DNA of 32,000 bases from Candidatus Saccharimonadota bacterium (GCF_025273655.1 NZ_CP045921.1:840001-872000); one strand, 5' to 3'; counted from the first letter of the stretch, positions 12,674 to 28,137 are shown. Translations and numbers: made by a program. The notes: generated from the sequence alone by a model not told the origin.

Positions 12674-12682
12674 TGCTACAAT
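12674..12682 (+). promoter_or_regulatory. extended -10 TGCTACAAT (with TTGATT at 12656..12661) for the cupin operon
   Basis: Exact recurrent 9-mer. The -35-like TTGATT lies 15 nt upstream. GGAAGGAG precedes the GTG start at 12721. Confidence 0.5.
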
Positions 12683-12720
12683 ATAAAGAGTAAGAATAGC
12701 ATTAGGAAGGAGCAGCTATA

Positions 12721-13137: not shown

Positions 13138-13145
13138 GAGCAACC

Positions 13146-13694
13146 ATGGCGGACAATATTACCCAGCGGCGCATGAGCGCAGAAGAAGAAGCAAATCTTC
13201 ACAAACAGATACAGGACTTTAGCCACACTATACAGCCTTCGTCTGCATCAGAATTGGTTACTCAAGCTGCCAATCCTCTCGCTCAGATAGATAGTGGTCA
13301 GTCGCTTCACGAACAGCTTCTACGTCGTGCCGAGCAGCGCGAACATCTCGATGCCACGCTTGGTGATGACTCACGCTTCTACGACTACAAGACATCACTA
13401 GTCGGAAGTGCAGCCCAAGATCAGGAAGTTCGACGGCAAATGGCACTCGTACAGCAAAAAGACCGTCAAGCTCGAGAAAAGCGTTTCGCCCACAGAGGTC
13501 TATCTCGGCGAAACGCGCGTCATGTCGATACCAATCGCAGACAAAATTTCAATACAGCGACCACCCCCGGCACCAAAGAATCTAGTGACAACAAGTCGAC
13601 TAGGCAAGGTTTCAATGGACAACCCCCAGAGCAAGCACGAACGAATGTCAGTTTTCGTGAGCCGCAAACTCGCAGCTACGACCCATTCAAATAG
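13146..13694 (+). CDS. hypothetical protein, Q/R/E-rich and predicted disordered
   Basis: AGGAG lies 6 nt upstream of the ATG, 8 nt after the cupin stop, so the two are probably co-transcribed. No family recognised. Confidence 0.55.
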   Translation: MADNITQRRMSAEEEANLHKQIQDFSHTIQPSSASELVTQAANPLAQIDSGQSLHEQLLRRAEQREHLDATLGDDSRFYDYKTSLVGSAAQDQEVRRQMALVQQKDRQAREKRFAHRGLSRRNARHVDTNRRQNFNTATTPGTKESSDNKSTRQGFNGQPPEQARTNVSFREPQTRSYDPFK

Positions 13695-13724
13695 CTCGCA
13701 CCTCTAGAAATACTCTCCCGTATC

Positions 13725-13733
13725 TGCTACACT
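13725..13733 (+). promoter_or_regulatory. extended -10 variant TGCTACACT upstream of tRNA-His
   Basis: One mismatch from the recurrent TGCTACAAT, 27 nt before the tRNA 5' end. Confidence 0.4.
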
Positions 13734-13760
13734 AGCATCTGGATATCCACATATAGCTAT

Positions 13761-13838
13761 GGCGAATGTAGCTCATTTGGTTAGAGCGTCGGGTTGTGGT
13801 TCCGAAGGTAGAGGGTTCGATCCCCTTCATTCGCCCCA
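13761..13838 (+). tRNA. tRNA-His (anticodon GTG) with genome-encoded G-1
   Basis: G(-1) GCGAATG TA GCTC ATTTGGTTA GAGC G TCGGG TTGTGGT TCCGA AGGTA GAGGG TTCGATC CCCTT CATTCGC C CCA. G-1 pairs with C73, as is usual for bacterial tRNA-His. Confidence 0.9.
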
Positions 13839-13876
13839 TAGAAAAACGTTGACTTATGCGGTCAACGTTTTTCTAT
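13838..13876. terminator. terminator hairpin immediately 3' of tRNA-His
   Basis: atagaaaaacgttgac / ttatgcg / gtcaacgtttttctat, a 16-bp perfect stem starting at the terminal A of the CCA. Confidence 0.7.
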
Positions 13877-13890
13877 AGCCATAACGCCTA

Positions 13891-13899
13891 TGCTATACT
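13891..13899 (+). promoter_or_regulatory. extended -10 variant TGCTATACT, 7 nt upstream of ATG 13907
   Basis: Read directly. No SD sequence fits in the 7-nt gap, suggesting a leaderless transcript. Confidence 0.45.
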
Positions 13900-13906
13900 G
13901 GCACAT

Positions 13907-14329
13907 ATGGATACATCGTCTTTTTCGCACTACATAGTGAAGATCGAATACCTCTTTGCAGCAGTGCTTGTCGCCCTCTTCTATGTGACAGTTGGCCACT
14001 TCGATTGGTGGTGGCTTATCGTGCTATTTCCGATTTTCGACGCAAGCATGATCGGCTACATAGTTAATCCACATGTAGGCGCAATCACTTACAATATCGT
14101 ACACAGCCTCGTAGGACCCGCACTCCTCGCGCTTATCTACATCTTTACCGTAGGCAGCACCGCAGCAGACACGTCTCGCCCGTACGTAGCGGATGGCCTG
14201 TTACTATTCATCACGCTCATATGGCTGTTCCACATCTTCGTAGACCGTGCGCTCGGCTTCGGGCTCAAGCATGACGAAGGTTTTCATCATACTCATCTAG
14301 GCAAGATTGGCAAAGCAGCCAAAAAATAG
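13907..14329 (+). CDS. DUF4260-family membrane protein
   Basis: FDASMIGYIVNPHVGAITYNIVHSLVGPALL and HIFVDRALGFGLKHDEGFHHTHLG match the DUF4260 pattern as I remember it. The track start at 13856 lies inside the tRNA-His terminator and upstream of the -10, so it was rejected. Confidence 0.7.
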   Translation: MDTSSFSHYIVKIEYLFAAVLVALFYVTVGHFDWWWLIVLFPIFDASMIGYIVNPHVGAITYNIVHSLVGPALLALIYIFTVGSTAADTSRPYVADGLLLFITLIWLFHIFVDRALGFGLKHDEGFHHTHLGKIGKAAKK

Positions 14330-14330
14330 G

Positions 14331-14336
14331 TATAAT
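14331..14336 (+). promoter_or_regulatory. -10 hexamer TATAAT, 9 nt upstream of the tRNA-Arg 5' fragment
   Basis: ggTATAATtctacctac precedes GCCCCGG... at 14346. This probably drives the tRNA-Arg(TCT) precursor. Confidence 0.4.
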
Positions 14337-14345
14337 TCTACCTAC

Positions 14346-14363
14346 GCCCCGGTAGCTCAGTTG
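14346..14363 (+). other. 18-nt direct copy of the 5' end of tRNA-Arg(TCT) (tRNA fragment or relic)
   Basis: GCCCCGGTAGCTCAGTTG is identical to 14438..14455. The sequence then diverges and no cloverleaf can be completed. Confidence 0.8.
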
Positions 14364-14394
14364 CTAGCCTTGAGCGATAGAAAACACCAGCAGG

Positions 14395-14409
14395 TGCTCT
14401 ATCCAACTG
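14395..14409 (-). repeat. 15-nt inverted copy of the tRNA-Arg(TCT) D-arm
   Basis: The reverse complement CAGTTGGATAGAGCA is identical to 14450..14464. Confidence 0.8.
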
Positions 14410-14437
14410 TCTATGAAGCTAGCGGCGCGGAGTATCT

Positions 14438-14514
14438 GCCCCGGTAGCTCAGTTGGATAGAGCAGGAGACTTCTAAGCTTCAGGCCGTTGGTTCGAACCC
14501 AACCCGGGGTACCA
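14438..14514 (+). tRNA. tRNA-Arg (anticodon TCT)
   Basis: GCCCCGG TA GCTC AGTTGGATA GAGC A GGAGA CTTCTAA GCTTC AGGCC GTTGG TTCGAAC CCAAC CCGGGGT ACCA, 77 nt. There is one A:G mismatch at the bottom of the anticodon stem. CCA encoded. Confidence 0.88.
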
Positions 14515-14588
14515 AATCTAGATAACAGATCAATTTTTGCTTGATCATCGAGAAAGTTTTGTATCCTATAATGATACAATTTTAATAT

Positions 14589-15128
14589 ATGCAGAAAATA
14601 GATTTACAGTTTTTTAATCAGTTACTAGATGAATCTGACATAAAGCAGCGCATAAAACGCGAGCTACGTTTTAACACTAGCATTTCACATCTTAAGGATA
14701 GCGACTGGCTTGAGCTAGAAATGATACACATTTCTAATCGCAGTGGAAATGTGGGCGTTTTACTATTAGGATTAGCTACTTCTATTTACCTGATTCCATA
14801 CGAATTTAAGAAAATAGGGCCAAGCGCTTCAACGGGTCGGCAGCAACCAATCATTTGTGATTTTTGTAGAACGTGGCAGTCAGGCACGCGCGCAGGAACT
14901 ATTACATTCACCAATGTAAAATCAGGTAAATCTAATGTCACCTATTTATGTTGTGGTGATCTGCGTTGTAGCGACCATGTACGCTCCAAGACCAGTGCCT
15001 CTAAAACATCCAGAACACAGCTGCGAGAAGATATGGATAACGAGAACCGTATCGATAGATTCAATGAACGCCTAGATAGACTAGTGAATGATTTGGAGAT
15101 TACGCCACTAACACTTCCTGAAGAATAG
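14589..15128 (+). CDS. FBP domain protein (FusB/FusC-type C-terminal treble-clef zinc finger)
   Basis: ICDFCRTWQSGTRAGTITFT...NVTYLCCGDLRCSDHVR matches the CxxC...C-x-DL-x-C-x3-VR pattern of FBP_C proteins from memory. TGATACAAT ends 8 nt before the ATG. The gene is visibly more AT-rich than its neighbours. Confidence 0.65.
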   Translation: MQKIDLQFFNQLLDESDIKQRIKRELRFNTSISHLKDSDWLELEMIHISNRSGNVGVLLLGLATSIYLIPYEFKKIGPSASTGRQQPIICDFCRTWQSGTRAGTITFTNVKSGKSNVTYLCCGDLRCSDHVRSKTSASKTSRTQLREDMDNENRIDRFNERLDRLVNDLEITPLTLPEE

Positions 15129-15203
15129 TAATCGTAAGGTATTCTAAACTTCAGCCAAGCTGCTTACTGACGCGAAATTCGCCCAAGAAAAACGACGACC
15201 TGC

Positions 15204-15231
15204 ACGGATGCGATCATCTGATCGCATCCGT
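15204..15231. terminator. terminator hairpin between convergent FBP and carboxypeptidase genes
   Basis: acggatgcgatc / atct / gatcgcatccgt, a 12-bp perfect stem followed by ttt. Confidence 0.6.
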
Positions 15232-15253
15232 TTAGCGAGCATGCCTGTAGTCG

Positions 15254-16234
15254 CTATAGCTTTTCCTGCCTCTGTTTGAGCCCATACGCCTGTTGCGTTA
15301 CTGCAAGCAACAAACCGCTATCGTCATAAAGCGCCTCGGTGTCATCCTCACCCATCACTACACCCACTATCGTCACCGGCTGGTTTTCAGCGGTAGTGTA
15401 CTTGGCTGCAAACATAAGACAGCTCCCAGCCTCACCCGTAGTACCAGTTTTGATACCAACCACGCCGTTACTACCTAGTAACTTATTGGTGTTTCTCACT
15501 TCTCCAATCCCCGGGATATCCACCTCTGCTTGACCCACGATACGCGCGATCACAGGACTCGCCAGCGCAGCGATACCAATACGCACCAGCTCCGACGGAG
15601 TACTCACTGTCTGCGGGCTCATACCACTCGCATCTGCCACCACGGTCTTGGTGAGACCCATATTCCGTAACATGGTCTGCGCGTACGATGCATACGCCTC
15701 TTGGGAGCCAAACGTCTTATCAATAAGTGTGTCCGCCATATTGTTTGCAGACACCATGAGCATCAGCTGTAGCGCTTCGAGCTGAGTCACCTCCATACCC
15801 TCATACACCGGCACTACGGACCCTCCTGCGGACATATCTTGAGTATAATGCGCAACATCGTGGGCAGTAAGTACGTACTTCTCGCCGGTCTGCCCGGACT
15901 GGATCGGTCGCTTCTTAAGAATGGCGAGTGCAGCGATTACCTTTGCCATACTGGCCGTGGGTTGTGACACTTCATCGCTAGCCGATCGAGCAATGATGCC
16001 ACTGCTAGTACTCCCTATTGCTGCCGACGCGGTCGCCGGCCACGCAAGCTCTACGTCATCGGCAAGCTGCACGGACGCTTCAGGCTTCTCGACAGAGACG
16101 GGTGCTCCACCGAGCAACGAAACATGCTGCGCAAACCCTAGCCCGACGATCACAACCAGCAATATGCCAATGATAGAGCCTGCGAGGACTCTACGGCGAT
16201 ATGCTTGCTTTCGTTGACTACTTTGCGTCTTCAC
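15254..16234 (-). CDS. D-alanyl-D-alanine carboxypeptidase (peptidase S11, PBP5/6-like), N-terminally membrane anchored
   Basis: SxxK (ASMAKV), SxN (VSANNM) and KTG (IKTGTT) motifs occur in the correct order and spacing. N-terminal TM segment LAGSIIGILLVVIVGLGF. GTG start 19 nt after the LOG stop. Confidence 0.85.
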   Translation of the reverse strand: MKTQSSQRKQAYRRRVLAGSIIGILLVVIVGLGFAQHVSLLGGAPVSVEKPEASVQLADDVELAWPATASAAIGSTSSGIIARSASDEVSQPTASMAKVIAALAILKKRPIQSGQTGEKYVLTAHDVAHYTQDMSAGGSVVPVYEGMEVTQLEALQLMLMVSANNMADTLIDKTFGSQEAYASYAQTMLRNMGLTKTVVADASGMSPQTVSTPSELVRIGIAALASPVIARIVGQAEVDIPGIGEVRNTNKLLGSNGVVGIKTGTTGEAGSCLMFAAKYTTAENQPVTIVGVVMGEDDTEALYDDSGLLLAVTQQAYGLKQRQEKL

Positions 16235-16252
16235 CCCAACCCCATCGTACGC

Positions 16253-16825
16253 TTATCTCGGAGCCATCGTAGTCACATTTCCAAGCAACAGTATAGCCTC
16301 ATTCGGACTCTCGACAAACGTCACAAATTCATCGAGCGACCTTATTGCTAGATGTGTATTCTCGCCAGCACGAAGCATGTTTTCGTTTGCGATACGTTCG
16401 AGCTGCATGCGAAAACCGTCGTAGAAGCCATCTGTGTTGAGGACAATGATCTGCTTGTCATGGTGCCACTGACGCTTGAGCTCAATAAGTTCTGTCAGCT
16501 CGTCGAGTGTCCCAATACCACCTACCAAGACAAGTATCACATCCGAGCGCTCAAGCATCGCAGCTTTGCGCTCGCCCAGTGTCTTAGCCATGATCAGTTC
16601 ATCGACCCCACGATGAATGCTCGCAGAGTACACCGAAAGCGTCACGCCAGTGACGCGAGCACCACCTGCCTGCATCACACGCGCCATCCGACCCATCAGT
16701 CCGTGACTTGAGCCACCATAGACGAGCTGATGTCCACCGGCGGCCAGCTGGTCGGCTAAACGTGTAGCGGGATGTGTATACTTCTCCGGCAGCTCGTTTG
16801 ACGAACAAAAAAGGCAGATATTCAT
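16253..16825 (-). CDS. LOG-family protein (TIGR00730; cytokinin riboside 5'-monophosphate phosphoribohydrolase-like)
   Basis: LVYGGSSHGLMG and VGGIGTLDELTE (the PGGxGTxxE motif) are present. The start was moved to ATG 16825 (MNICLFCSS). TATGAT (16832..16837, minus strand) lies 6 nt upstream. Confidence 0.85.
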   Translation of the reverse strand: MNICLFCSSNELPEKYTHPATRLADQLAAGGHQLVYGGSSHGLMGRMARVMQAGGARVTGVTLSVYSASIHRGVDELIMAKTLGERKAAMLERSDVILVLVGGIGTLDELTELIELKRQWHHDKQIIVLNTDGFYDGFRMQLERIANENMLRAGENTHLAIRSLDEFVTFVESPNEAILLLGNVTTMAPR

Positions 16826-16898
16826 GCTCTTATCATACCAAATTTTATCGTAAATTTGACACATCTTTATAATAATTCTATAAAAATATCAAATTTTA

Positions 16899-16907
16899 TG
16901 CTACAAT
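16899..16907 (+). promoter_or_regulatory. extended -10 TGCTACAAT, 7 nt upstream of GTG 16915
   Basis: Exact recurrent 9-mer in the divergent intergenic region shared with the LOG gene. Confidence 0.5.
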
Positions 16908-16914
16908 AGGCTCC

Positions 16915-18519
16915 GTGAACCAAGACTCTCAGCTGAATCAGCTCGGCGCCCAGCTCGTTGATTCGCTCACCCGTATCGACGCGTACGAATCAGACGTACT
17001 TGCTCGTCGTGACAAAGAAACAATCCACATCCCCACGGTTGGCAGCAAGCTCTCAACAGCATATGAGCAGCTCCGTAATGCCTCCGAATACGCCGAAGAC
17101 AACCTGTTGCGCCAGCGTGCTATTCGCCGTTATCTTCGCCGCGTTCTGTCGTTTCATGAACATATCGGCACCAAGCCTTTTGCCGAAGAACTCGTCACCG
17201 AACTTACCCAGTCTGAATATCTACCAAATGATCACATTACTAAAAGCGACCTCAAGGCAATCTCTGAGCACATCAAGCACTACTACGGTGCATATTGGCA
17301 GTACGTCAAAATCGAATCAAGCAGCGGCAAACGTCTGCGCTTTCAGGGATGGATGCTTGACGTTCTGAGTGTTCGCTGTGAACAAGTACTGCAAAGCAAT
17401 ATCCGCCAGCTATCGTTTACACACTTTGCCTACACTTATCTGCAACCAAAACTGAGCGTCAAAAAGCTCGTGCGCAGCGGCGAGTCGATTGATGAGCAAG
17501 ACTATTCACTTGTACTCTATATCGCCATTCAGCGGGCCATCCTCAAATCAGACAGTGCCTCGATTCGCGCCGCGCTCATCGATAGCTATCGCCAAGATAT
17601 TGGTCTCATCCACAATTTTGAAGCGTTCAATGCGAAGTTTGATCAGCTCTACGATAGCAAGACAGTCGCCTACACTAGCCGCATTGTGAGTCGCAACGGT
17701 GCCACGCTCCGCATGCTCTACACAGGATTTTATACACATGACGCGCCGATCTCTCCGCAGGCGTTCAAAACAGAAGATAGCCTAGAATATGCCTTACGCC
17801 AGCACGTCGAGAAAGAATACGATGACCTAAACAAGCGTCTCGACAAAGGCATTCTGCGCAGTATCGCATTCCTACTTATCACCAAAAGCATCATTGGCCT
17901 CGGCGTCGAGGTACCCTACGATCTGTTTGTCGAAGGACACATTCTGTGGATGCCACTTGTTATCAATCTCTTCTTCCCGGCCGTCTTCATCGCCATTTCC
18001 CGCCTCACCCTTTCTACGCCAACTGGTCGCAATACCGACGCAATCATCGCCCATACCCGCCACATTTTGTACGAAGACCTCAGCGAAAACTCTGCTTCAT
18101 ATGCCATTCGTACCCCTCGCGCGACACCATCGGTCGGATTCAACCTCCTATATGCAGTCATGTTCATACTCGTATTTGGAGCACTCTCATATATACTCTT
18201 CCAACTCAAATTCAACATTGTACAAGGTATCATCTTCTTCGTTTTCTTGTCGACAGCTAGTTTTCTGGCATTTCGCTTATCCAACCAAATCCGCGAAATC
18301 GAAGAAGTCCATCTCTCGCAGGGATCACTTGCACTACTGCGTGATATCCTATACATGCCGTTTATCTACGTCGGACAACAAATTTCATTCCGTTATAGCA
18401 AGATTAATATTGTTGCCAACATCCTCGACATCTTGATCGAGCTACCCCTTAAGACCGTCTTGCGTCTCGCACGTCAGTGGACACAATTCCTCAACAGCAA
18501 AAAAGACGAATTGATCTAG
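16915..18519 (+). CDS. hypothetical membrane protein (about 320-aa soluble N-terminal region plus about 4 C-terminal TM helices)
   Basis: Long ORF with a GTG start and no in-frame ATG nearby. Hydrophobic segments include IAFLLITKSIIGLGV, ILWMPLVINLFFPAVFIAI, LLYAVMFILVFGALSYILF and IIFFVFLSTASFLAF. No family recognised. Confidence 0.6.
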   Translation: MNQDSQLNQLGAQLVDSLTRIDAYESDVLARRDKETIHIPTVGSKLSTAYEQLRNASEYAEDNLLRQRAIRRYLRRVLSFHEHIGTKPFAEELVTELTQSEYLPNDHITKSDLKAISEHIKHYYGAYWQYVKIESSSGKRLRFQGWMLDVLSVRCEQVLQSNIRQLSFTHFAYTYLQPKLSVKKLVRSGESIDEQDYSLVLYIAIQRAILKSDSASIRAALIDSYRQDIGLIHNFEAFNAKFDQLYDSKTVAYTSRIVSRNGATLRMLYTGFYTHDAPISPQAFKTEDSLEYALRQHVEKEYDDLNKRLDKGILRSIAFLLITKSIIGLGVEVPYDLFVEGHILWMPLVINLFFPAVFIAISRLTLSTPTGRNTDAIIAHTRHILYEDLSENSASYAIRTPRATPSVGFNLLYAVMFILVFGALSYILFQLKFNIVQGIIFFVFLSTASFLAFRLSNQIREIEEVHLSQGSLALLRDILYMPFIYVGQQISFRYSKINIVANILDILIELPLKTVLRLARQWTQFLNSKKDELI

Positions 18520-18525
18520 GGGAGA

Positions 18526-21231
18526 CTAGCTCGAAGCTTTAAAGATGATGTTGTTAGTGGTGTAGAAGTCATCATGGCTATTCGGAATCGTGTCCTCATC
18601 CCAGCATTGGCGCGAACCAGACATACTCGCGAGCACCGCGCATGCCATCGTATAGCCACGGAAATATTTCATCATTTCGCTACTGTCATCCATGCATTTT
18701 TTGCCCGTATACCACTCTTGGTCAGCCGTACTGCCCCAGCCCAGCGCATAGTAACTTTCTGGCTTTTCTTCATCATCCGGTTTCTCGCGTAAGCCACTAC
18801 GGTTATCCGAAGTACGGCGCCCCTTCTCGTCGACTGGGTCTTCAGCATATTTGGGATCCTGTTCATCCACCGCCATGCCAATACCACCCCAGGGATCTTG
18901 GCGATTAACACAATATTGCATAAATTTGGCATATTCGGTGTACTTGTTCGGCTTGCCTGTCGCAGGGTCAACATACGCTGCTGCTGCACCGTCCCGTGCT
19001 TGCTTTTTCATACGCTCGCCGCGCTCTGGGTCTGCACTTGTATCACGCGCATTTACTTCGGAAAGTGACTTCTGGGCATTGTCTGGATGAGGTTTCGTCA
19101 TGTAGTCGAGGATTTCAGATATATCGAGGCTTAGCTCCTGGGGTGTCATAGAGTAACGTATATTACACGCAAAGTCTGGATTGATCTCTATATCGAGGTC
19201 GCCCTGAATACCGCATACTGTCGCAGGCTGCATACGCGTCACCTGAAAATGAGATGGCTGTGTATAGAGCGCACTGACGCCAGTCTGCAGGACACCATTA
19301 GCAGCAAGTGGCAACGACGAAAGTAGGGTCGACACACCTCCTTGCCAAGAACCAGATGGCAATGCGGTACCAGCCGGTGCAAATTTCGCTACCACACTCC
19401 CCACGAAGCTATAGGGATTTGTTGCGTCCCAAGGAGTGCTGCGCGCCGCAATTCGCTCCTCATTCTCCAGTTTCTCTTGTAATAGCTGCGCCTGGGTCAT
19501 ATATACAGTCATGCTGGCTATATTTGCCGGGCGCATGCCAAGTGACTGCGCCCTATCGCCTAGTAATGTACCCGTACCTGCAAAAATAATATTTTGCGCC
19601 TGTATACCAGTGGTGGACGCACTAAATCGCTGCGATTCAGCCTGTGCCGCAATTCGAATACGCTCGGGGAGTGTTGCCGTGGCTTCTGTTCGAGTAGCCG
19701 CTTTCACGAGCTCCACTACAGATTTCACAGATGCCGGGCACATGATACGCTCTATTAAGTCTTTGGCAGCCCCAATTACACCACCAGCTGCCACCCCAAT
19801 ATAGCTCGCAAGTGGCATCGACGCAGGTGACCAACACAAGCCACTTTGCTCGGTTGCCATCTGCGCACCGCTCATTCCCTCAGAACAGAGCCCGTGGGCA
19901 GTTCTATCACGAGCTCCGTTTTGGACAATATTGCTTGTCAGCGCTAGTTTCAGGTACTCTGTTCCTGGTACCGAAGGTGCGCCCGGCTTAAGGATCCCTA
20001 GCAGTAGCAATGGCGTCAATTCGGTCAATATCGTAGCCCGATCCTTGATCGACTCGCCAAGTGCAGGCACACGATAGGTGTCGGCGTCCATAGCATTTTT
20101 GCCATTAGAGTTTGCCTTTGTCAGTTTGTTCGCGAGCGACTCTACGGCAATTTCTCCGTCGATGGGGGAACCCGCCTTGAGGTCATCGGCTACAGCAAGA
20201 TAATTCATAGCATACCGAGCCGTCGACACGACTTTGGCTCGCGCCACAGCATTTTCTGCCAAGTTGCCGTAAGTAGCATATGAACAGGCCAGAGAAAGAT
20301 GAGTATTCGCCTTCGCTTCTAGATTGGTATAGATTTTTGTCCTCCACGAATTGGACATTTCACTCAAGCTCGCAAGACTATAGATTCCCCGTCCATTTTC
20401 ATCGATTGCGTCCTGTGTATCTTGCGCATTTGTAGCTGCATTTTCCACATCGTCACTGAAGTCATTGTATCGGGGATCGCCGTGCGCAACGCGTTCGTCA
20501 AACGCTGCATCAAACTTCTCTACCGTATCTCCATGGAGCGTATTGTCTTGCTCAATACCAAACTTACTGAGCAGACGATCAAAGAACTGCCTGTCCTGAT
20601 AAATACCCGTGCGCGAACTATAGACTTTGTTCATCAGATCATCGGCACTATGATTATTCTTGCGTACTGCGTTAAGTGTCGTCGCATCAACCGCCGCACC
20701 CCCGCCATTTGGAAAAATCAGCGAGGATACATTGTAGCGCTTATTTGTCGCCTGGCTTGAAGTCAGGATAAATCCATAGCGTTCAAATCGTTCCTTGAGC
20801 ATAGGGCTCATAGTTTGGAATTTACATTTGATTGTCTTTTCACCGCAGCCTGCGCCGAGCTGTCCACCCAATACTTTGTTGGAATACGTATAGTACGCAT
20901 AGAGGCCGTCATTGAGATCGTTGGTCAATTGCTCTTTGTCATTGATCAGTAATACCATGGGTGAAATAAACAGTATACCAGTCACTGCCAAAATAAACAC
21001 AGCACAGACAAAGAGGACTGAACTCACATGCCCAGTATGAACTTTTTCGGTATAGTGAGTTTCGGTATCGACGTGCGTCTTCTTCTCGACCTCTTCCTTA
21101 TGAGTAACAGTCGTAGTACCACCGGTACCACTTGACTCAAGTCGTTTAAGCATAGACTGTGACTCACTCAAATCTCCCGTATCGTCCCGGTTGGCAGACG
21201 AGTTGTTGAGCTGCTGGTTGTTTTCCGGCAT
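18526..21231 (-). CDS. large N-terminally anchored extracytoplasmic protein (4th gene of the Clp-like membrane operon)
   Basis: 901 aa from ATG 21231 (TTG 21234 is also possible). About 70 charged N-terminal residues are followed by one TM segment (VSSVLFVCAVFILAVTGILFISPMVLL) and an ~800-aa domain with several Cys. The start overlaps the upstream stop (TGATG). No family recognised. Confidence 0.7.
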   Translation of the reverse strand: MPENNQQLNNSSANRDDTGDLSESQSMLKRLESSGTGGTTTVTHKEEVEKKTHVDTETHYTEKVHTGHVSSVLFVCAVFILAVTGILFISPMVLLINDKEQLTNDLNDGLYAYYTYSNKVLGGQLGAGCGEKTIKCKFQTMSPMLKERFERYGFILTSSQATNKRYNVSSLIFPNGGGAAVDATTLNAVRKNNHSADDLMNKVYSSRTGIYQDRQFFDRLLSKFGIEQDNTLHGDTVEKFDAAFDERVAHGDPRYNDFSDDVENAATNAQDTQDAIDENGRGIYSLASLSEMSNSWRTKIYTNLEAKANTHLSLACSYATYGNLAENAVARAKVVSTARYAMNYLAVADDLKAGSPIDGEIAVESLANKLTKANSNGKNAMDADTYRVPALGESIKDRATILTELTPLLLLGILKPGAPSVPGTEYLKLALTSNIVQNGARDRTAHGLCSEGMSGAQMATEQSGLCWSPASMPLASYIGVAAGGVIGAAKDLIERIMCPASVKSVVELVKAATRTEATATLPERIRIAAQAESQRFSASTTGIQAQNIIFAGTGTLLGDRAQSLGMRPANIASMTVYMTQAQLLQEKLENEERIAARSTPWDATNPYSFVGSVVAKFAPAGTALPSGSWQGGVSTLLSSLPLAANGVLQTGVSALYTQPSHFQVTRMQPATVCGIQGDLDIEINPDFACNIRYSMTPQELSLDISEILDYMTKPHPDNAQKSLSEVNARDTSADPERGERMKKQARDGAAAAYVDPATGKPNKYTEYAKFMQYCVNRQDPWGGIGMAVDEQDPKYAEDPVDEKGRRTSDNRSGLREKPDDEEKPESYYALGWGSTADQEWYTGKKCMDDSSEMMKYFRGYTMACAVLASMSGSRQCWDEDTIPNSHDDFYTTNNIIFKASS

Positions 21232-23234
21232 CAATGTAACCGTACGTCACCTGACATTACATCACTATCACTCGGGGTTTTTGGTATGAGACCCGCTTCA
21301 CGCATATCTTCTTGTTGGGCAAGTGCGTCTTGTGCCCCCGCCACATATTTCGCTGCACGAGTTTTTGCAAGCAGTTCATTACTGTTTTGAGAAGGCCGAC
21401 GTGGCGCGAAACCAGTACCACTAGCCAGTTGTGCATCACCTGTGCCGCCAGAGGATGGCTGTGCAGCTTGCACGATAATCGTCGCACCCCCCGTACTCGC
21501 TTGTGTGGCACCTCCTCCAGTAGATGGCGCAACCGTCATCGCTGACGCTGTCACACCACCAGTTGTCGGAGCGTGATAAGGGTCAGGTGGAGGCGTCTGA
21601 GCGTTACCTCCGGAAGACTTACCATCACGGTTGAGAGAGCTAATACCAGCTGCTTTCTTATCTTTCTCGTCGGACTGACTATCTTTGCTGCCCTTCTGCT
21701 GTTCTGCTCCGGGCGTTGATGCAACACCTACACCCTTGCCGAGGCTCTCAAGCAAAAATGCTTCCGATGCCTTGAGCTCGATTCCTTCGTAGCTATTGAT
21801 ATTCACACCGTCACTTCCAGCATCCCCATTCATACGATCCTGATAGCGCTGCAGCGCCTGTGAATACAGCTCCTGAGGTGAGCGACCAGCTTCCGAGCCG
21901 CCTCGTAGCTCACTGAGACGTTGCTGCACCTGCGAGTCAAACCTAGCTTGTTCGGGAGTTTTTGTCTGATGTTTGCCTCTTCCTCGATACGCCCCACCGA
22001 CACGTCCAAATATTGACGCATTGCTTTCACCATCTTTGGCAACGTTCAGCTGCTGCAAACGATTAATACCCCTGAGCATCATAGACTTTTTGTTCATATC
22101 CATAGCGGTCTGCTCACGCTTCTTGGCTTTTTCGTCACGCTCACGCGAACTACGGCGTAACCCATCACGCGACACGCGAGCACCAGCTGCATCGATAGCA
22201 TTTGTCGCGGCCTTGAAAGCATACCACGTTCCCACCAGTGGCAGTACCGCAGCTCCCGCAGCTACAAGATAAAGCGTTGCGCTCTGCTGGCCTGCAGGCT
22301 TAAGCGCGATTGTGTCGTTGTCAACCTGATAATCACTTCCGCCAGCCTTGATAATAGATGCGCTCACAATCTGACCCGCACCTATAAGAAAAGAGATGAT
22401 TGGAAACAGTAATAACATATGCAAAAACAACTTGAGCCACCTAGAGAAGTAATCTGACGTATTAGGTAGTAGATAAGCGAAAAAGGCAAGTGGCGCCAGT
22501 AAAATTAGCATCACCACTAACGCCTTGCGTACGATAAGCACGATAATCAGTGCAGAACAAATCACAGTCGCAGACATTACAACAGCAGTCAGAGGTGCGA
22601 GTAGCACCCAAGCAACTTCATTTTTCGAAATCACCCCAGACGTAATATCGGCAAGTGGGCTGACATCATATGTACCAGGGGAACTTGCGAGCGGCATAGC
22701 GGAGGCACCGATGTTCTTGGCAACACCGTCTACCAAAAGTTGCTGTATACCTACACCTAACAAATTCGATAGATCAACCATGATCTGACAGATATAGTAA
22801 GACAGGTTAACAAAAATAACCGCAAGTATGAAGCGCGGCACCAAACGCTTAAGGTTATAATTGCCGATACCACGCCCAGTAATCAGGGCATATACGATAT
22901 AGAGAAACGCGATTACAAATAGCACGTTGGCAATCGTGCGCATGATAGCGCCCGCCTGTGCGGCACCACTTTGCGTATTGTAAAACGACACTTCTACCTT
23001 CAAGAAGTTTTGAGATACAAACGTAAACGCATAGTCGCCCGCGACAGAAGTCGCGCGCAGTACTGGGCAAATAATCCAGCCCATGTTGTCATAAGCACAG
23101 GTCGAGACCGATCCTTGGCTCAGTAGCGATGGGATTCCGGTAGTAGAGACAGCTCTCGCTGTGCCCCCAACAAGGCTTACAGCCAGTACAACGGTAATCA
23201 GCCCGGCAACGATGAGACTCCAGAGCCGTTTCAT
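21231..23234 (-). CDS. polytopic membrane protein (about 7 TM) with an ~320-aa low-complexity C-terminal tail (3rd gene of operon)
   Basis: Signal-like N-terminus MKRLWSLIVAGLITVVLAVSLVGGTARA, multiple hydrophobic helices up to about aa 340, then a K/R/E- and G/S/T/P/Q-rich tail. GGAGG lies 8 nt upstream. An ATGA overlap links it to the Clp-like gene. The topology is reminiscent of VirB6/TrbL, but I cannot verify that. Confidence 0.7.
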   Translation of the reverse strand: MKRLWSLIVAGLITVVLAVSLVGGTARAVSTTGIPSLLSQGSVSTCAYDNMGWIICPVLRATSVAGDYAFTFVSQNFLKVEVSFYNTQSGAAQAGAIMRTIANVLFVIAFLYIVYALITGRGIGNYNLKRLVPRFILAVIFVNLSYYICQIMVDLSNLLGVGIQQLLVDGVAKNIGASAMPLASSPGTYDVSPLADITSGVISKNEVAWVLLAPLTAVVMSATVICSALIIVLIVRKALVVMLILLAPLAFFAYLLPNTSDYFSRWLKLFLHMLLLFPIISFLIGAGQIVSASIIKAGGSDYQVDNDTIALKPAGQQSATLYLVAAGAAVLPLVGTWYAFKAATNAIDAAGARVSRDGLRRSSRERDEKAKKREQTAMDMNKKSMMLRGINRLQQLNVAKDGESNASIFGRVGGAYRGRGKHQTKTPEQARFDSQVQQRLSELRGGSEAGRSPQELYSQALQRYQDRMNGDAGSDGVNINSYEGIELKASEAFLLESLGKGVGVASTPGAEQQKGSKDSQSDEKDKKAAGISSLNRDGKSSGGNAQTPPPDPYHAPTTGGVTASAMTVAPSTGGGATQASTGGATIIVQAAQPSSGGTGDAQLASGTGFAPRRPSQNSNELLAKTRAAKYVAGAQDALAQQEDMREAGLIPKTPSDSDVMSGDVRLH

Positions 23235-25684
23235 TCCCTTGCCTCCACACTTGCCTCGGCTACGATTGCATTTGCCGCCACTTCAGCACCAAGCACGCCC
23301 TGCACTTGCTCGAGCGTAATATACATAGTCGTACCCGGTGTGACGTTGCCCCCCAACATTTCTTTTGCGACGGTGTTTTCTATTGCTCGCTGGACAACGC
23401 GGCGCATCGGCCTGGCGCCCAGCCTAGGATCGTAGCCTTTATCTACTAAATATAGTTTAGCATCTTCTGTTACATCTACCGAAACTTTTTGCAGCGCCAG
23501 CGTCTTGTTAACACCTGCTATCATGAGGTTGATCACTTGTACTAGTTCTGCTTTGCCGAGTGGTGTAAATGTCACGATCTCATCGAAACGGTTGAGGAAC
23601 TCAGGGCGGAATTGATTGCTACTAATTAGCTCATCGATAAACTGCGGCTCGAACTGTTCTAATTGCTCGCCTTTCTCGATATGCTCACGTATACGATCAG
23701 CCCCCGCATTACTTGTAGCAATTACGATTGCATCGCGAAAACTCACTTCACGGTTGCGTACATCTCGCAGTATACCCTCATCCAACAGCTGCAAAAGTGT
23801 CGTTAAAACGTTTGGATGTGCTTTCTCAATTTCATCAAGTAAAACAACGCTAAACGGTTGCTTCATCACTTGGGCAGTCAGGCTATTTGGATCATCGGCC
23901 CCATCCGCAATCAAGCGATTCACATCTTCCAGCGTAACGTATTCGTTCAGATCGAGACGAATCATGCGATCTTCTCCGCCAAAATACACATCCGCGAGCG
24001 CTTTTGCGAGCTCCGTCTTACCTACACCCGTAGGCCCAAGAAACAGAAAAGTACCGATTGGTCGATCTTGATTGCGTACACCTGCCCTAGCCCTGCGAAG
24101 TGCATCACTCACCACTTGCACAGCACGTTTCTGATTGATCATGCGTTCATGGATCTTATCCTCGAGATTGAGCAATGTCTCGCGCTCGGCTGCGACGTCG
24201 GCAGTCCCTACTTTCACATTCATCGTCTGTTCGATAGCCTGTTGCACGGAGTTCATCGTCACAAATTTACCGCTCTCAGCATAACTTGCAGCCGTCTCAA
24301 GTAGTTTAAGGGCGCGCCCAGGCATCTCAAGATCATGTATGTATCGTTCGCTCAGCCGATATGCTTCCGCAAGTGACTGATACATGTATGTGACCTTACG
24401 CTTGTACTCCGTCATGATTAGTTGATCTTGCATCACAGCAACTGTTTCATCTCTACTGGCAGGTGCAAGTATGATGCGATTGAGTGCGTTTACTAACCCA
24501 GGGTTACGTTGTGCTATCTGCAGTAGACGCTGCTCGTCCATTGTGAGTATAATGCGGAGATTACCTGCCTCGAGTATTGGCAGTAACACATTCGTGAGAT
24601 CAACAGATCCAACACCCTCTTCAAAAAATAGCTGTGCATTGTCCAGACAAATAATGATATTTTTAGCTCGGTACGCCTCTGTAAGTACGCGCATTATTAG
24701 TCCTTCGAGCTCGCCGCGACCTGGAGCTGCCGAAATAAGTGCAGAAGAGTCCATCAGAAATACCTGGCGAAATTTGAGACTCGATGGCACCTGTGCATCG
24801 GCGTCAAGTAAGCGTTCCGCAAATGCGTGCAATAGCGTAGTTTTACCTACGCCTTCGGACCCCACAATTGCCGCGTTTTGACGTCCGCCACCACTCATCG
24901 CCTCTACAAGCTGATCGAGTGCCCGCAGGTGACTATCGAGCTCCACAGTAAACACGCCGCCGCCTTCACTAAGATTGACGCCAAAACGTTTAAGGAGAGG
25001 TACATAGCCAAACGACCAATCGCGCGCAATACCACCAGTACGGCGAGGCTTCGCCTGCTGCCCAATCAACTCTTGAATATGATCGTACCAGCGAATACCA
25101 GCAATGAGATCATCGAGCTCGAGATGCATTTGCGCCAGTAGTATGTCGTGATCAGCAAATTGTCGAATCAATGCTACAGCAACTATACCACCGTGGAGAA
25201 TCGGACTTCCTGTCTGCAGTTGAATATCTCGGGCGTCCACCCATATATCATCACTGCGCTTCACGTCGTCGCTTGCTATATTGAGCAGAAAATTGGCCGT
25301 TACACCAAAACGGACAGCCATAAATTGCCCAGCCTGAGACTTACCTATTAGCTCAGCGATTTGTGCCGGCGTTGCGCCCTCTGACAGCCCTGCTAGAATT
25401 GATGCCTCTAGCCATGCATCTACCGCTTCTCTATTGCTATCGGGCGGGAGATTTTTGAGCTCACCGGCATGCCATTCGACAAGCATCGCCGGGATAGCCG
25501 CAAGTCCGAATACAAACCAACCTATCGGTACGCCTAAAAACACCAATGCACAGCCACTAACACCGAGCACCAAAGTAGCGACCTTGAGCAGCGCAACAAT
25601 TTGAAATGTGAGTAACTTGCCAAAGCGCGCCTTGGCACGCCGCTCACTCGTGAGATTGAGCTCTAAAACTGCCATGGTATCCAT
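23231..25684 (-). CDS. membrane-anchored ClpA/ClpB-family double AAA+ ATPase, divergent (2nd gene of operon)
   Basis: Two N-terminal hydrophobic helices (LLTFQIVALLKVATLVLGVSGCALVFLGV, IGWFVFGLAAIPAML). D1 Walker A is GSEGVGKT. D2 carries FLFLGPTGVGKTELAKALA, VVLLDEIEKAHPNV, ATSNAG, RPEFLNRFDEIV and GARPMRR. The start was moved from 26023 to ATG 25684 (or 25675), because the track's N-terminal 113 aa overlap the real upstream gene in another frame. Confidence 0.85.
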   Translation of the reverse strand: MDTMAVLELNLTSERRAKARFGKLLTFQIVALLKVATLVLGVSGCALVFLGVPIGWFVFGLAAIPAMLVEWHAGELKNLPPDSNREAVDAWLEASILAGLSEGATPAQIAELIGKSQAGQFMAVRFGVTANFLLNIASDDVKRSDDIWVDARDIQLQTGSPILHGGIVAVALIRQFADHDILLAQMHLELDDLIAGIRWYDHIQELIGQQAKPRRTGGIARDWSFGYVPLLKRFGVNLSEGGGVFTVELDSHLRALDQLVEAMSGGGRQNAAIVGSEGVGKTTLLHAFAERLLDADAQVPSSLKFRQVFLMDSSALISAAPGRGELEGLIMRVLTEAYRAKNIIICLDNAQLFFEEGVGSVDLTNVLLPILEAGNLRIILTMDEQRLLQIAQRNPGLVNALNRIILAPASRDETVAVMQDQLIMTEYKRKVTYMYQSLAEAYRLSERYIHDLEMPGRALKLLETAASYAESGKFVTMNSVQQAIEQTMNVKVGTADVAAERETLLNLEDKIHERMINQKRAVQVVSDALRRARAGVRNQDRPIGTFLFLGPTGVGKTELAKALADVYFGGEDRMIRLDLNEYVTLEDVNRLIADGADDPNSLTAQVMKQPFSVVLLDEIEKAHPNVLTTLLQLLDEGILRDVRNREVSFRDAIVIATSNAGADRIREHIEKGEQLEQFEPQFIDELISSNQFRPEFLNRFDEIVTFTPLGKAELVQVINLMIAGVNKTLALQKVSVDVTEDAKLYLVDKGYDPRLGARPMRRVVQRAIENTVAKEMLGGNVTPGTTMYITLEQVQGVLGAEVAANAIVAEASVEARE

Positions 25685-26046
25685 CCTGCCGTCATAAGTA
25701 CGAACCCGGTGATAGGTAGCACTGGTACAATTGCCCATACCGCTAGTACGCAGACGCCCAAAAGTGCTTGGAGCGTAATCGTAACAAGGCCCATCACCAG
25801 CACCGTGCTGCGAATCATTGCACCAATAACGCGTGAGATCATGCGTCCCGCCCACGCCTGTACTTTCACTGACAGTGGACCATCTACCGAGCCAGCCCCA
25901 TCTTGGCGAAACAACGCAAACATTGTCCGTAGGAGCAGACCTATGGAGAAATAATCCATTGTACTTTCGAGTCGGGTCATCGTCATACGGGCGCGCTGTT
26001 GCCAGCCTATCGTATACCACCACCTCAGTAGGCCCACTATAAACAT
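25663..26046 (-). CDS. small integral membrane protein, 127 aa (1st gene of operon)
   Basis: Hydrophobic segments VIGAMIRSTVLVMGLVTITLQALLGVCVLAVWAIVPVLPITGFVLM. The stop overlaps the Clp-like start. TATAAT lies 6 nt upstream of the ATG. Confidence 0.6.
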   Translation of the reverse strand: MFIVGLLRWWYTIGWQQRARMTMTRLESTMDYFSIGLLLRTMFALFRQDGAGSVDGPLSVKVQAWAGRMISRVIGAMIRSTVLVMGLVTITLQALLGVCVLAVWAIVPVLPITGFVLMTAGWIPWQF

Positions 26047-26052
26047 AACCTC

Positions 26053-26058
26053 ATTATA
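26053..26058 (-). promoter_or_regulatory. -10 hexamer TATAAT, 6 nt upstream of ATG 26046 (operon promoter)
   Basis: The minus strand reads gagTATAATgaggttATG. Confidence 0.45.
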
Positions 26059-26126
26059 CTCTATTACCTCAGAAAAACTACCTTCTTTTCCCCTGTTTTG
26101 GGGTGTTTTTTCGCTCCACGAATCGC

Positions 26127-26132
26127 TATACT
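26127..26132 (+). promoter_or_regulatory. -10 hexamer TATACT (cGCTATACT), 8 nt upstream of murT ATG 26141
   Basis: Read directly. No SD sequence in the gap. Confidence 0.45.
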
Positions 26133-26140
26133 AAAAGAAT

Positions 26141-27412
26141 ATGGTTCGACCTCATATCGCTACTATTGGCAAAGTAGTCCGACAAGTCACTCGCCTGCGT
26201 GGTGGTGGCTCGGCCTTTCCTGGTCTCGTTATCGAAAAAATCGATCCTCGCTTCACCCGCGATGTACTCGCTAGCCTTCCATATGGCGTTGTCATCATCA
26301 GTGGCACCAATGGCAAGACCACTACCACAAAGATGACCGTCGAACTCCTCGAAAGCCAAGGGTTCCGCGTCTTTACTAATCGCACGGGGAGCAATTTCTC
26401 GCGTGGTGTCACCGCTGCTATACTCGGCGAGATCGATTACAAAGGTACGCTCAATGCTGACATCGCGGTGCTTGAGCTAGACGAAGCCCATGCAGTCAAA
26501 TTTGTGGATATCATCCCACCTCGCTATAGTTTGCTGCTCAATGTTATGCGCGACCAACTCGATCGCTTCGGCGAAATCGATACCACTGCCCGCATGCTTG
26601 AGCATATTGCCCAGGCCACCACTCATACAGTCGTGCTCAACCGCGAAGACCCACGCATCGCCCCTATCGGTGACTCACTTACCGCTCGCACCCAAGCAGA
26701 GTACTTCGGTCTTAGCGACGAGCTACGCCCCAAGTTTCCATCCGACGACGACATGCGCTCCAGTACAAAAGCAATTGATGCACGCGATGCCGATGTCATC
26801 CTGACAAACTTCGACGGTAACACCGCCTCGTTCCATTTCGACAACCGTGACATAGCTGTACCGCTCAAACTCCGCGGCATCTACAATATCTACAACGCAG
26901 CAGCGGCACTCACCCTCACGCGTACCATTGCTGCCGAACGTTACAACAAGAAGGCCCTACTCGAAGCCCTTGGCAACGTCGTGCCAGCCTTTGGCCGCGG
27001 TGAGACGGTCATGCTTGACGGCCAACCTGTCGAGCTGGTACTCGTCAAAAACCCTAGCGGCTTCCGTCTAGCCCTTGAGTCATTCTCGCCAGATGGCTAC
27101 GCAACCATGATCGCCATCAACGACAATTATGCCGATGGTCGTGATATGAGTTGGCTCTGGGATGTCGATTTTGACAGCCTTCGACCAGCAGGTGTTGCAC
27201 ACGTGAGCGGCGTCCGCGCCTACGACATGGCCCTTCGCCTTCAGTATGACGATGTCGAAACAGCACATGTCGACACCGACATACCAGCAGCACTGCGAGC
27301 TTTTTGCGCTGAGCATGCCGATTCACCAAAACGCATCTACTGCACCTATACCGCCATGCTTCGCCTGCGCGAGCTACTGAGCCGCATGACCCAAGTGGAG
27401 AAAATATTATGA
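26141..27412 (+). CDS. murT: lipid II isoglutaminyl synthase, Mur-ligase-like subunit
   Basis: Contains the GTNGKTTT P-loop, a Mur ligase central domain and the C-terminal DUF1727 signature DNYADGRDMSWLWDVDF. An ATGA overlap links it to the downstream amidotransferase. Confidence 0.85.
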   Translation: MVRPHIATIGKVVRQVTRLRGGGSAFPGLVIEKIDPRFTRDVLASLPYGVVIISGTNGKTTTTKMTVELLESQGFRVFTNRTGSNFSRGVTAAILGEIDYKGTLNADIAVLELDEAHAVKFVDIIPPRYSLLLNVMRDQLDRFGEIDTTARMLEHIAQATTHTVVLNREDPRIAPIGDSLTARTQAEYFGLSDELRPKFPSDDDMRSSTKAIDARDADVILTNFDGNTASFHFDNRDIAVPLKLRGIYNIYNAAAALTLTRTIAAERYNKKALLEALGNVVPAFGRGETVMLDGQPVELVLVKNPSGFRLALESFSPDGYATMIAINDNYADGRDMSWLWDVDFDSLRPAGVAHVSGVRAYDMALRLQYDDVETAHVDTDIPAALRAFCAEHADSPKRIYCTYTAMLRLRELLSRMTQVEKIL

Positions 27413-28137
27413 CCCAACCCGAACACACCCTCACTATCGTACAGCTCTACCCAGACGACATGAACATCTATGGCGACTGGGGTAACGTGCTCACTGTCAT
27501 GAAACGTGCAGAATGGCACGGCCTCTCGCCCTCGCTCATCAACTACAATGTTGGCGATGAATTCCCTGCCGAGGCGGATATTATCATCGGTGGCGGTGGT
27601 CAAGACAGCGGTCAGCTCAAAGTTCAGGCGGATTTGCAGCAGATCGCACCGCGCCTGCGCGAGTTTGCAGATGCCGATACGCCTATGCTCATGATCTGCG
27701 GACTCTACCAGCTGTTCGGCAGGTTCTTCAAGACAAGCAAAGGTGAAATCATACAAGGTATCGACATCTTCCATGCCGAAACGCATGGCGGCCCGGAGCG
27801 CTTGATCGGCAATATCGTCACTACCAGCGAAGAGTTCGGCGAAATCATCGGCTACGAAAACCACAGCGGTCAGACATTCATTGACAGCGACATGCAACCG
27901 CTAGGCCGTGTCCGTCAGGGCGCTGGCAACAATGGCCAAGATGACACCGAAGGCTGCATCTACCGCAATGTCATCGGCACATATCTGCACGGATCACTGC
28001 TGCCCAAAAACCCGGCCATCGCAGATGGTCTCATACAAGAAGCCGCCAAGAAGAAATACCCCGACTTCACACTCAATATCCTTGAAGATCGCTTCGCTAC
28101 GAAAGCTCGTGAAATCGCGCTCAAGCGACCACGATAG
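27409..28137 (+). CDS. gatD: lipid II isoglutaminyl synthase, glutamine amidotransferase subunit (CobB/CobQ-like GATase)
   Basis: YPDDMNIYGDWGN, the nucleophile context MICGLYQLFG and YLHGSLLPKNP are present. Translationally coupled to murT. Confidence 0.85.
   Translation: MTQPEHTLTIVQLYPDDMNIYGDWGNVLTVMKRAEWHGLSPSLINYNVGDEFPAEADIIIGGGGQDSGQLKVQADLQQIAPRLREFADADTPMLMICGLYQLFGRFFKTSKGEIIQGIDIFHAETHGGPERLIGNIVTTSEEFGEIIGYENHSGQTFIDSDMQPLGRVRQGAGNNGQDDTEGCIYRNVIGTYLHGSLLPKNPAIADGLIQEAAKKKYPDFTLNILEDRFATKAREIALKRPR

Follow-up and report, generated by a model that had tools for sequence, protein, structure and literature searches.

Four consecutive minus-strand genes, g1–g4, in a 32-kb window of DNA from Candidatus Mycosynbacter amalyticus (NZ_CP045921.1:840001–872000; the window is the whole stretch that we analysed) probably combine two independent conserved modules that were joined once, in the Mycosynbacter lineage. 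The first module, g1–g2, encodes a small membrane protein and a membrane-anchored ATPase derived from the Hsp100 family, and the second, g3–g4, encodes relatives of two proteins found in Saccharibacterial clusters of type IV secretion system (T4SS) genes. M. amalyticus is a cultivated Saccharibacterium and a parasite of Gordonia amarae; g1–g4 are not mentioned in the papers on this organism that we consulted. There is no new secretion system here: the operon holds T4SS parts of a known kind in a lineage-specific operon fusion.

Operon structure and the distribution of its two halves

The four reading frames are tightly packed. g1 (25663–26046, minus strand) encodes a small membrane protein of 127 amino acids. 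g2 (23231–25684, minus strand) encodes a membrane-anchored Clp/Hsp100-type double AAA+ ATPase of 817 amino acids when read from ATG 25684, or of 814 amino acids from an alternative start at ATG 25675, as placed by an independent gene call on identical Logan contigs. g3 (21231–23234, minus strand; 100% identical to GII36_04715) encodes a TrbL/VirB6-family polytopic membrane protein of 667 amino acids, and g4 (18526–21231, minus strand) a protein of 901 amino acids with one transmembrane (TM) segment and an ectodomain of ~810 amino acids. The TAG stop codon of g1 (25663–25665) lies inside g2, 3′ of both candidate g2 start codons; the g2/g3 junction is an ATGA (23231–23234) with a GGAGG 13 nucleotides upstream; and the g3/g4 junction is a TGATG (21229–21233). 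An initial annotation had described four coupled minus-strand frames with overlaps at these places, and the coordinates and junctions could be read directly as it claimed; the anatomy that it gave to the four products was likewise borne out by Pfam, hydropathy and AlphaFold. A longer g2 reading frame from GTG 26023 (930 amino acids) was rejected, as it overlaps the conserved g1 frame and the orthologues begin at the MAVL motif.

Related loci were collected with two profiles. A g2 N-domain profile, run on metagenome contigs, gave 325 relatives, from which 80 loci were taken. A g3 profile built on 19 sequences, an earlier alignment of 39 sequences being too divergent, was run against one genome per species. 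It found 321 relatives, and we used the best 80 matches, which represent 74 distinct loci. We located g1–g4 and T4SS markers in these loci by tblastn. g1 lay directly upstream of g2 in all 71 loci with enough flanking sequence, and overlapped it in all but one. Downstream of g2, g3 was present in 10 of the 44 loci with enough flanking sequence, the other 34 carrying g1–g2 without g3–g4, and nothing else was conserved on this side of g2 in the related loci. Where all four genes occur together the junctions are tight, with a few outliers (–8 to +29 nucleotides for g2/g3 and –11 to +3 nucleotides for g3/g4). Conversely, a g3-like/g4-like pair stands without g1–g2 in at least 20 loci, with no g2 within 10 kb.

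The history of the fusion can be read from g2. In a neighbour-joining tree, all loci that bear g3–g4 form one clade, which is nested among loci that lack them. In the window, g4 is followed by a convergent gene for a membrane protein of 534 amino acids (n534; 16915–18519, plus strand); in locus L143 the n534 gene (4729–6318) comes 1.3 kb after g2, with no g3–g4 between. Given the single g2 clade and the layout of L143, the simplest history is therefore one move of g3–g4 into the gap between g2 and n534.

The two halves are also apart in a relative, Southlakia epibionticum ML1. There, SEML1_0701, a gene of 384 nucleotides (the length of the g1 gene), overlaps SEML1_0700 by 22 nucleotides (Wang et al. 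2023, PMC10633639), and the two are annotated as a hypothetical protein and an 'AAA family ATPase', respectively (Wang et al. 2023, Tables S1 and S2, PMC10633639). SEML1_0701/0700 agree with g1–g2 in gene lengths, in the 22-nucleotide overlap, in Pfam coordinates and in the divergent murT–gatD genes at their side (SEML1_0702/0703), and on these domain coordinates and this synteny they are evidently the orthologues of g1–g2. Unlike g1–g2, the pair has an unrelated TPR gene after it, on the opposite strand, and no VirB6-like or g4-like gene. In the transposon-sequencing (Tn-seq) screen of ML1, SEML1_0700 and SEML1_0701 scored NE, NE and GD, that is, as non-essential, with a growth defect that appears late (Wang et al. 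2023, PMC10633639). In the same study, murT, gatD and the T4SS of ML1 (SEML1_0006–0019, elsewhere in the genome) were essential (Wang et al. 2023, PMC10633639).

The initial annotation had proposed that the four products form one dedicated, undescribed envelope machine, in which a motor of Clp type would be joined to a channel and a surface protein. The overlapping stop and start codons, the single conserved promoter-like element and the plausibly complementary topologies of the products would fit such a machine, but its halves are apart in most genomes, its 'channel' and 'surface protein' are paralogues of proteins from T4SS clusters, and its 'motor' lacks the pore-loop residues of Hsp100 translocases. 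We consider it very unlikely, and the synteny of g1–g4 largely refutes it. The idea that these genes concern an envelope or secretion apparatus survives, whereas the four-part machine does not; nor does the statement that the operon could not be assigned to any described system, as g3 matches the TrbL/VirB6 family above its gathering score and g4 is homologous to proteins of T4SS clusters. Both outcomes, VirB6 membership beside a T4SS partner and broken synteny among relatives, had been named in the initial annotation as ones that would refute its proposal. These results favour the reading of g1–g4 as two modules, which we take up in turn.

The g1–g2 pair and its Hsp100-type ATPase

Several lines of evidence place g2 in the Hsp100 family and outside each of its named members. 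Pfam finds AAA_2 (1.6e-44), ClpB_D2-small (2.7e-22) and AAA_lid_9, in addition to an N-terminal D1 P-loop module. The closest relatives in the PDB are ClpB and ClpC (~1e-100), and ClpA aligns to g2 in a single stretch (g2 residues 231–795). Against the NCBIfam Clp equivalogs, g2 stays far under every cut-off, reaching about one third of those for ClpB (396 of 1232), ClpA (347 of 993) and TssH (259 of 885); it scored 304 for ClpG, with a cut-off of 1900, and the ClpK cut-off was likewise not reached. The family defined by the g2 N-domain has 189 representatives among 1.84 billion sequences (HMMER), and its full-length members are all 777–840 amino acids long.

The N-terminal 260 residues of g2 begin with a predicted TM hairpin (25457–25606, minus strand; residues 27–76), recognized by hydropathy and modelled by AlphaFold as two helices (residues 27–49 and 54–76) joined by a loop of ~4 residues, with a predicted local distance difference test score (pLDDT) of 85–93. 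In this model the hairpin would anchor the ATPase at the cytoplasmic face of the membrane. It is followed in the AlphaFold model by a helical domain resembling Clp_N (25055–25417, minus strand; residues ~90–210). When this domain was compared with the PDB by Foldseek, the top ~40 matches were all N-domains of Clp or Hsp104 proteins, with probabilities of 0.9–1.0 but E values of 0.04–0.6 and template-modelling scores of ~0.4–0.5; N-domain structures of HSP101 are among the fold matches, and Pfam reports no Clp_N match in g2. A family signature, RTGGIARDWSFGY (residues ~215–227; consensus GG[IVL][AG]RDW[SA]xG[YFW]), joins the Clp_N-like domain to D1.

We then counted catalytic and substrate-handling motifs in 58 orthologues of g2 and in 40 full-length distant representatives (down to 37% identity). 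In D1, the Walker B motif reads LDNAQ (24632–24646, minus strand; residues 347–351) rather than IDE, with Asn in place of the catalytic Glu in the alignment with ClpB and ClpC. This position is Asn in 46 and Asp in 12 of the 58 orthologues, and it varies among the 40 distant representatives. The D1 pore loop (residues 318–327, SAAPGRGELE) has APGRGE where AKYRGE is expected, and so no Tyr, and A-P-G-R-G-E is kept throughout the 58 orthologues. In the D2 pore-loop region (RLIADGADDPNSLTAQV; 23867–23917, minus strand; residues 590–606), the GYVG loop is deleted: a five-residue gap stands opposite GAPPGYVGY of ClpB and ClpC, and the acidic ADGADDPNS takes its place. These states are traits of the family, and pore-loop aromatics are absent from 57 of the 58 orthologues and from all 40 distant representatives. 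By contrast with D1, the D2 Walker A, Walker B and sensor-2 motifs are intact, and Walker A, Walker B (LLDEIEKAH) and GARPMRR are invariant among the orthologues. The sole orthologue with a canonical D2 loop ('GAPPGYVGYEEGG'), in locus L111 (5216–7627), has a lower overall score and probably arose by chimeric assembly or by recombination with a canonical Clp gene.

Two further elements of Hsp100 proteins are missing from g2. The coiled-coil M-domain of ClpB is skipped, with g2 residues 470 and 471 aligning to ClpB residues 393 and 513, and the ClpP-docking loop of IGF/VGF type is deleted, with a seven-residue gap opposite RFAGFGG of ClpC. As g2 has no pore-loop aromatics, no M-domain and no ClpP loop, it is therefore very unlikely to partner ClpP or to be a classical threading disaggregase, and because it fails the defining motifs of ClpA, ClpB, ClpC and ClpV, none of these names should be given to it. 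g2 is an Hsp100 derivative, a membrane-anchored variant that was not previously described: we found no paper on a membrane-anchored Clp-like ATPase in Patescibacteria, and the T4SS papers that we consulted do not describe one. The initial annotation had judged rightly that a membrane-tethered Clp-like ATPase is unusual, and its background statement on the usual solubility of Hsp100 proteins is a fair one.

g1, the partner of g2, has two strong C-terminal TM segments by hydropathy and no match in Pfam, NCBIfam or PADLOC. From the predicted topology, all folded domains of g2 would be cytoplasmic: the Clp_N-like domain, D1, which is degenerate, and D2, whose catalytic motifs are intact. g2 could then form a membrane-tethered ring whose ATP hydrolysis falls to D2 alone and whose Clp_N-type domain serves for docking, and together with g1 it may act as a D2-driven remodelling or assembly factor on a membrane-proximal client, by a route other than threading with aromatic paddles.

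The only neighbourhood that g1–g2 keep throughout is on the other side. murT (26141–27412, plus strand; Pfam MurT_C and Mur_ligase_M) is divergent from g1 and is followed by gatD (27409–28137, plus strand; Pfam GATase_3). A divergent, adjacent MurT gene was present in 58 of 60 g2-centred loci. Between the two units, a –10-like hexamer, TATAAT (26053–26058, minus strand), lies 6 nucleotides ahead of the g1 ATG, as the initial annotation had noted. TAnAAT recurs at the identical 6-nucleotide spacing from the start codon of g1 in almost all of ~75 related loci, far above chance, and this conservation at a fixed spacing argues for a leaderless g1 mRNA. A generic sigma-70 (–35/–10) scan did not list the TATAAT, because no –35 is present, and the number of sites that it found in the region was no higher than in shuffled sequences. 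The conserved hexamer probably serves as a promoter from which g1 is transcribed without a leader, and g1–g2 would be transcribed from it back-to-back with murT–gatD. The starts of murT and g1 are ~30–130 nucleotides apart across the related loci, which therefore points to a very compact bidirectional control region common to both units. A hairpin followed by a T-run is found on the plus strand (26091–26113) in the g1/murT spacer (26047–26140). Rfam has no family in the operon or its leader; five tRNAs occur elsewhere in the window only.

One possible explanation for this arrangement is that g1–g2 are tied to murT–gatD, and hence to lipid II amidation or to the handling of cell-wall precursors, with the adjacency to g3–g4 being incidental; the ATPase might be a membrane-anchored regulator or organizer that is co-expressed from the bidirectional promoter. 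The divergent murT–gatD adjoining g1 at so short a distance, the same arrangement in ML1 and the lack of conservation on the other flank of g2 all favour this explanation. However, murT and gatD are essential in ML1 whereas SEML1_0700/0701 are not, in small genomes synteny by itself carries little weight, and we know of no MurT/GatD system with an AAA+ partner. We regard a tie to murT–gatD as a tentative possibility. A link of g2 to murT–gatD is as plausible as a service to the T4SS, and murT–gatD is the only neighbourhood of g2 conserved in this way.

Another reading of g2, as a ClpB-like part of an anti-phage defence system comparable to DolB of Dodola, starts from a PADLOC match of DolB to g2 residues 477–661 (E=9e-30). 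This match covers the generic D2 AAA+ core only; PADLOC found no DolA or other defence protein among g1, g3, g4 and n534; and in all sampled related loci g2 holds a fixed housekeeping position beside murT, unlike genes in defence islands. With a generic DolB match and the DolA partner absent, the Dodola reading was dropped as extremely improbable.

The g3–g4 pair and type IV secretion

The T4SS of Patescibacteria is chromosomal and resembles the MPF-FATA type, with VirB6, VirB3, TrsD and VirB2-like components and usually no relaxase (Wang et al. 2023, PMC10633639; Quinonero-Coronel et al. 2025, PMC12102498). In a published survey of Patescibacterial T4SSs, a minority of VirB6 homologues is encoded away from virB4. 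g3 matches the TrbL/VirB6 family PF04610 with 30.3 bits, above the gathering score of 25.9 (E=4.4e-7; residues 107–325 on profile positions 2–205 of 215). Eighteen of the 19 members of the g3 family match PF04610 individually, and most of 92 g3 homologues carry precomputed matches to PF04610, PF19590 (TrbL_3) or both. The protein has six hydrophobic segments by hydropathy and a C-terminal tail of 322 amino acids rich in G, A and S, and the first of its predicted external loops contains two invariant residues, Cys46 and Cys56. A comparison of the g3 profile with PDB sequences gave noise only and no VirB6 chain. Judged by its profile matches, g3 is a member of the TrbL/VirB6 family, and its annotation should read VirB6-like.

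g4 has a TM segment at residues 71–89 and 12 invariant Cys residues. Its AlphaFold model is mostly alpha-helical (pLDDT 77; predicted template-modelling score 0.80). There is no sequence match to g4 in Pfam, NCBIfam or the PDB and no match to its fold in the PDB or BFVD. Nor does it contain the lytic transglycosylase, peptidase or amidase domain that would be expected of a VirB1-like cell-wall hydrolase. Its relatives were found by comparing families: the g4 family aligns by hhalign with the products of genes that follow VirB6-like genes (probability 100, E=4e-140, 792 columns) and with the products of genes directly after virB4 (probability 100, E=6e-75, 720 columns). From these alignments, g4 is a member of a Saccharibacteria-specific family of T4SS-cluster proteins, which is unnamed in the literature on the Saccharibacterial T4SS (PMC10633639, PMC12102498). 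The virB4-adjacent paralogues end in Exo_endo_phos, Peptidase_M23, GH43 or a weak NlpC/P60 domain, and g4 has none of these. Proteins on the g4 scaffold beside virB4 occur in environmental Saccharibacteria at L035 15892–19338, L053 15507–20333, L076 15867–20474, L059 11217–15419 and L073 14492–17668. Together, the virB4-adjacent proteins look like a modular T4SS surface protein with swappable hydrolase heads.

Where the g3-like/g4-like pair occurs without g1–g2, it usually lies 3–8 kb upstream of a second VirB6-like gene, PrgI, TrsD and VirB4; L013, L018, L019, L026, L034, L035 and L039 are examples located by tblastn. L079 is a canonical Saccharibacterial T4SS locus, with a VirB2-like pilin array, VirB6-like genes, PrgI (VirB3), TraC-like/TrsD and VirB4. 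In it (4812–18221), five tandem VirB6-like genes (775, 931, 824, 990 and 927 amino acids) stand between a nine-gene VirB2-like pilin array and PrgI; the product of 927 amino acids had been a candidate g4 homologue, and BLASTP identified it as the fifth VirB6-like paralogue. In L077, a pilin array is divergent from a TrbL_3 gene of 674 amino acids, which is followed by a Pfam-less protein of 996 amino acids that aligns with g4 over its full length. L077 (7166–9942, minus strand) and its equivalents in L014–L025 hold conserved Pfam-less genes of 348 and 408 amino acids and a weakly T4SS_pilin-like gene of 160 amino acids. In most lineages without the fusion, these three genes point away from the g3-like/g4-like pair in divergent orientation; they are absent from the window.

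In terms of function, g3–g4 would be a copy of two T4SS parts, the VirB6/TrbL subunit of the channel and a large surface protein rich in disulfides. The pair may work with a T4SS core (VirB4, TrsD, PrgI and pilins) located elsewhere in the genome, to which it would add an accessory or alternative module of channel and surface components. A functional link between g1–g2 and g3–g4 may also exist. In one form of it, the adjacency in M. amalyticus reflects a real and class-wide partnership, in which g1–g2 would be the cytoplasmic-face energizer or assembly chaperone of the Saccharibacterial T4SS; g2 could, for example, act on long cytoplasmic VirB6-like tails or substitute for missing VirD4- or VirB11-type ATPases. 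The retention of the g2/g3 junction (ATGA or near-abutting) across a diverged clade favours such coupling, and so does the constancy of g1–g2 among the sampled Saccharibacteria-type contigs, set beside reports in the literature that the T4SS is conserved across the class. It would also suit the T4SS cluster of S. epibionticum, for which the literature gives no recognizable coupling protein, and the 322-amino-acid tail of g3, which the TM count predicts to be cytoplasmic and thus on the side of g2.

Against this partnership, the adjacency arose once, and outside the clade that shares it no g2-centred locus has VirB4, PrgI or VirB6 within 10 kb. g2 was found in none of the T4SS loci that we mapped. 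In ML1, the T4SS is essential whereas SEML1_0700/0701 have a late growth defect only, and the motifs of the g3 tail are equally conserved where g3 is not adjacent to g2. We therefore consider a class-wide partnership doubtful. The more specific proposal that g1–g2 provide the essential Saccharibacterial T4SS with its missing ATPase or assembly chaperone at the cytoplasmic face, acting without threading on VirB6-type subunits, we hold to be improbable. If it were true, the operon of the Mycosynbacter clade would be the genomic trace of a partnership between g1–g2 and the T4SS.

Our preferred reading, of two independent modules joined once, has to be weighed against several points of its own. 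The fusion, with its overlapping junctions, is retained in a clade whose g4 proteins diverge to ~35% identity, so the coupling could be under selection and the two modules may depend on each other in function. The loci that we compared are not independent of one another, and near-duplicates among them include L086/L087/L091/L092 and L003/L081. Co-transcription of g1–g4 is suggested by the overlaps alone. The missing pore-loop aromatics of g2 argue against threading and are not proof. The presence and make-up of a core T4SS in M. amalyticus, and any second g3–g4 pair there, are assumed from the reported class-wide conservation.

Neighbourhood, implications and comparison with known systems

As the initial annotation had stated for ClpP and VirB4, no ClpP, VirB4, PrgI, TrsD or T4SS pilin was detectable within the 32 kb. 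n534 has no family assignment; its N-terminal half is predicted to be cytoplasmic and is followed by four C-terminal TM segments, and it is kept convergent to g4 throughout the four-gene clade (57–83% identity). Beyond n534 are a LOG-family gene and a D,D-carboxypeptidase gene, and farther off are pseudopilin and RCC1 genes, murB, glyA and an HTH–MurA fusion. The fusion gene (10720–12339, plus strand) is unusual in attaching a DNA-binding domain to an essential cell-wall enzyme: it encodes MurA (EPSP_synthase, residues 109–523) with an N-terminal XRE-type helix-turn-helix domain (HTH_3, residues 44–91), and it is also present in the gene call on the identical contig. At 91–8020 (plus strand), murB and two genes for RCC1-repeat (beta-propeller) proteins of 467 and 968 amino acids are interspersed with four pseudopilin genes, which carry the N_methyl motif. 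This may be a cluster of type IV pilus minor pilins or of adhesins.

In annotations, g3 should be called VirB6-like and g4 a paralogue of T4SS-cluster proteins, and neither ClpB nor ClpC is a suitable label for g2. The T4SS is essential for the epibiotic growth of Saccharibacteria, and a detached, putatively co-expressed pair of VirB6 and a surface protein helps to separate the core of the system from its accessory parts. g1–g2 represent an overlooked, conserved Hsp100 variant in very small genomes, with one ring predicted to be active and no pore-loop aromatics, which would make g2 an unusual mechanistic case for the Hsp100 family. Given the consistent retention of g1–g2 and the fitness defect in the Tn-seq data, the pair probably does something specific at the membrane. 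The operon of the Mycosynbacter clade offers a testable hypothesis that links the T4SS to an ATPase.

Compared with ClpA, ClpB and ClpC, g2 shares two AAA+ modules, an AAA_2-type D2 with D2-small and intact D2 motifs, and its modelled N-domain may be Clp_N-like. It differs from them in its TM hairpin, its aromatic-free pore loops and the Asn or Asp of its D1 Walker B motif, and in having neither an M-domain nor a ClpP-binding loop. Hsp100 proteins attached to envelope machines include ClpV/TssH of the type VI secretion system (T6SS) and HSP101 of the Plasmodium PTEX translocon. Like g2 in M. amalyticus, these are Hsp100-type ATPases beside the genes of a secretion apparatus. ClpV and HSP101 are soluble subunits that retain their pore-loop tyrosines, whereas g2 is predicted to be membrane-anchored and lacks them, and no T6SS genes are present beside g2.

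The comparison with the Saccharibacterial T4SS concerns the other half of the operon. g3 is of the TrbL/VirB6 type, homologues of g4 follow VirB6-like genes and, in another form, directly follow virB4, and relatives of g3–g4 lie beside VirB2-like pilin arrays, PrgI/VirB3, TrsD and VirB4. In contrast to the canonical T4SS cluster, g3–g4 of the window are detached from VirB4, PrgI, TrsD and the pilins and are fused to the operon of a Clp-like ATPase. Extended VirB6 paralogues are also carried by Rickettsiales. Such paralogues resemble g3 in their polytopic core and long hydrophilic C-terminal extension, in occurring several to a genome and in being encoded in some cases away from virB4. A review of T4SS nomenclature notes VirB6 paralogues that are multiple or 'extended' and that bear large hydrophilic domains (PMC12857230). 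Unlike the extended VirB6 proteins found elsewhere, g3 belongs to a monoderm epibiont and is paired with a lineage-specific protein of ~900 amino acids.

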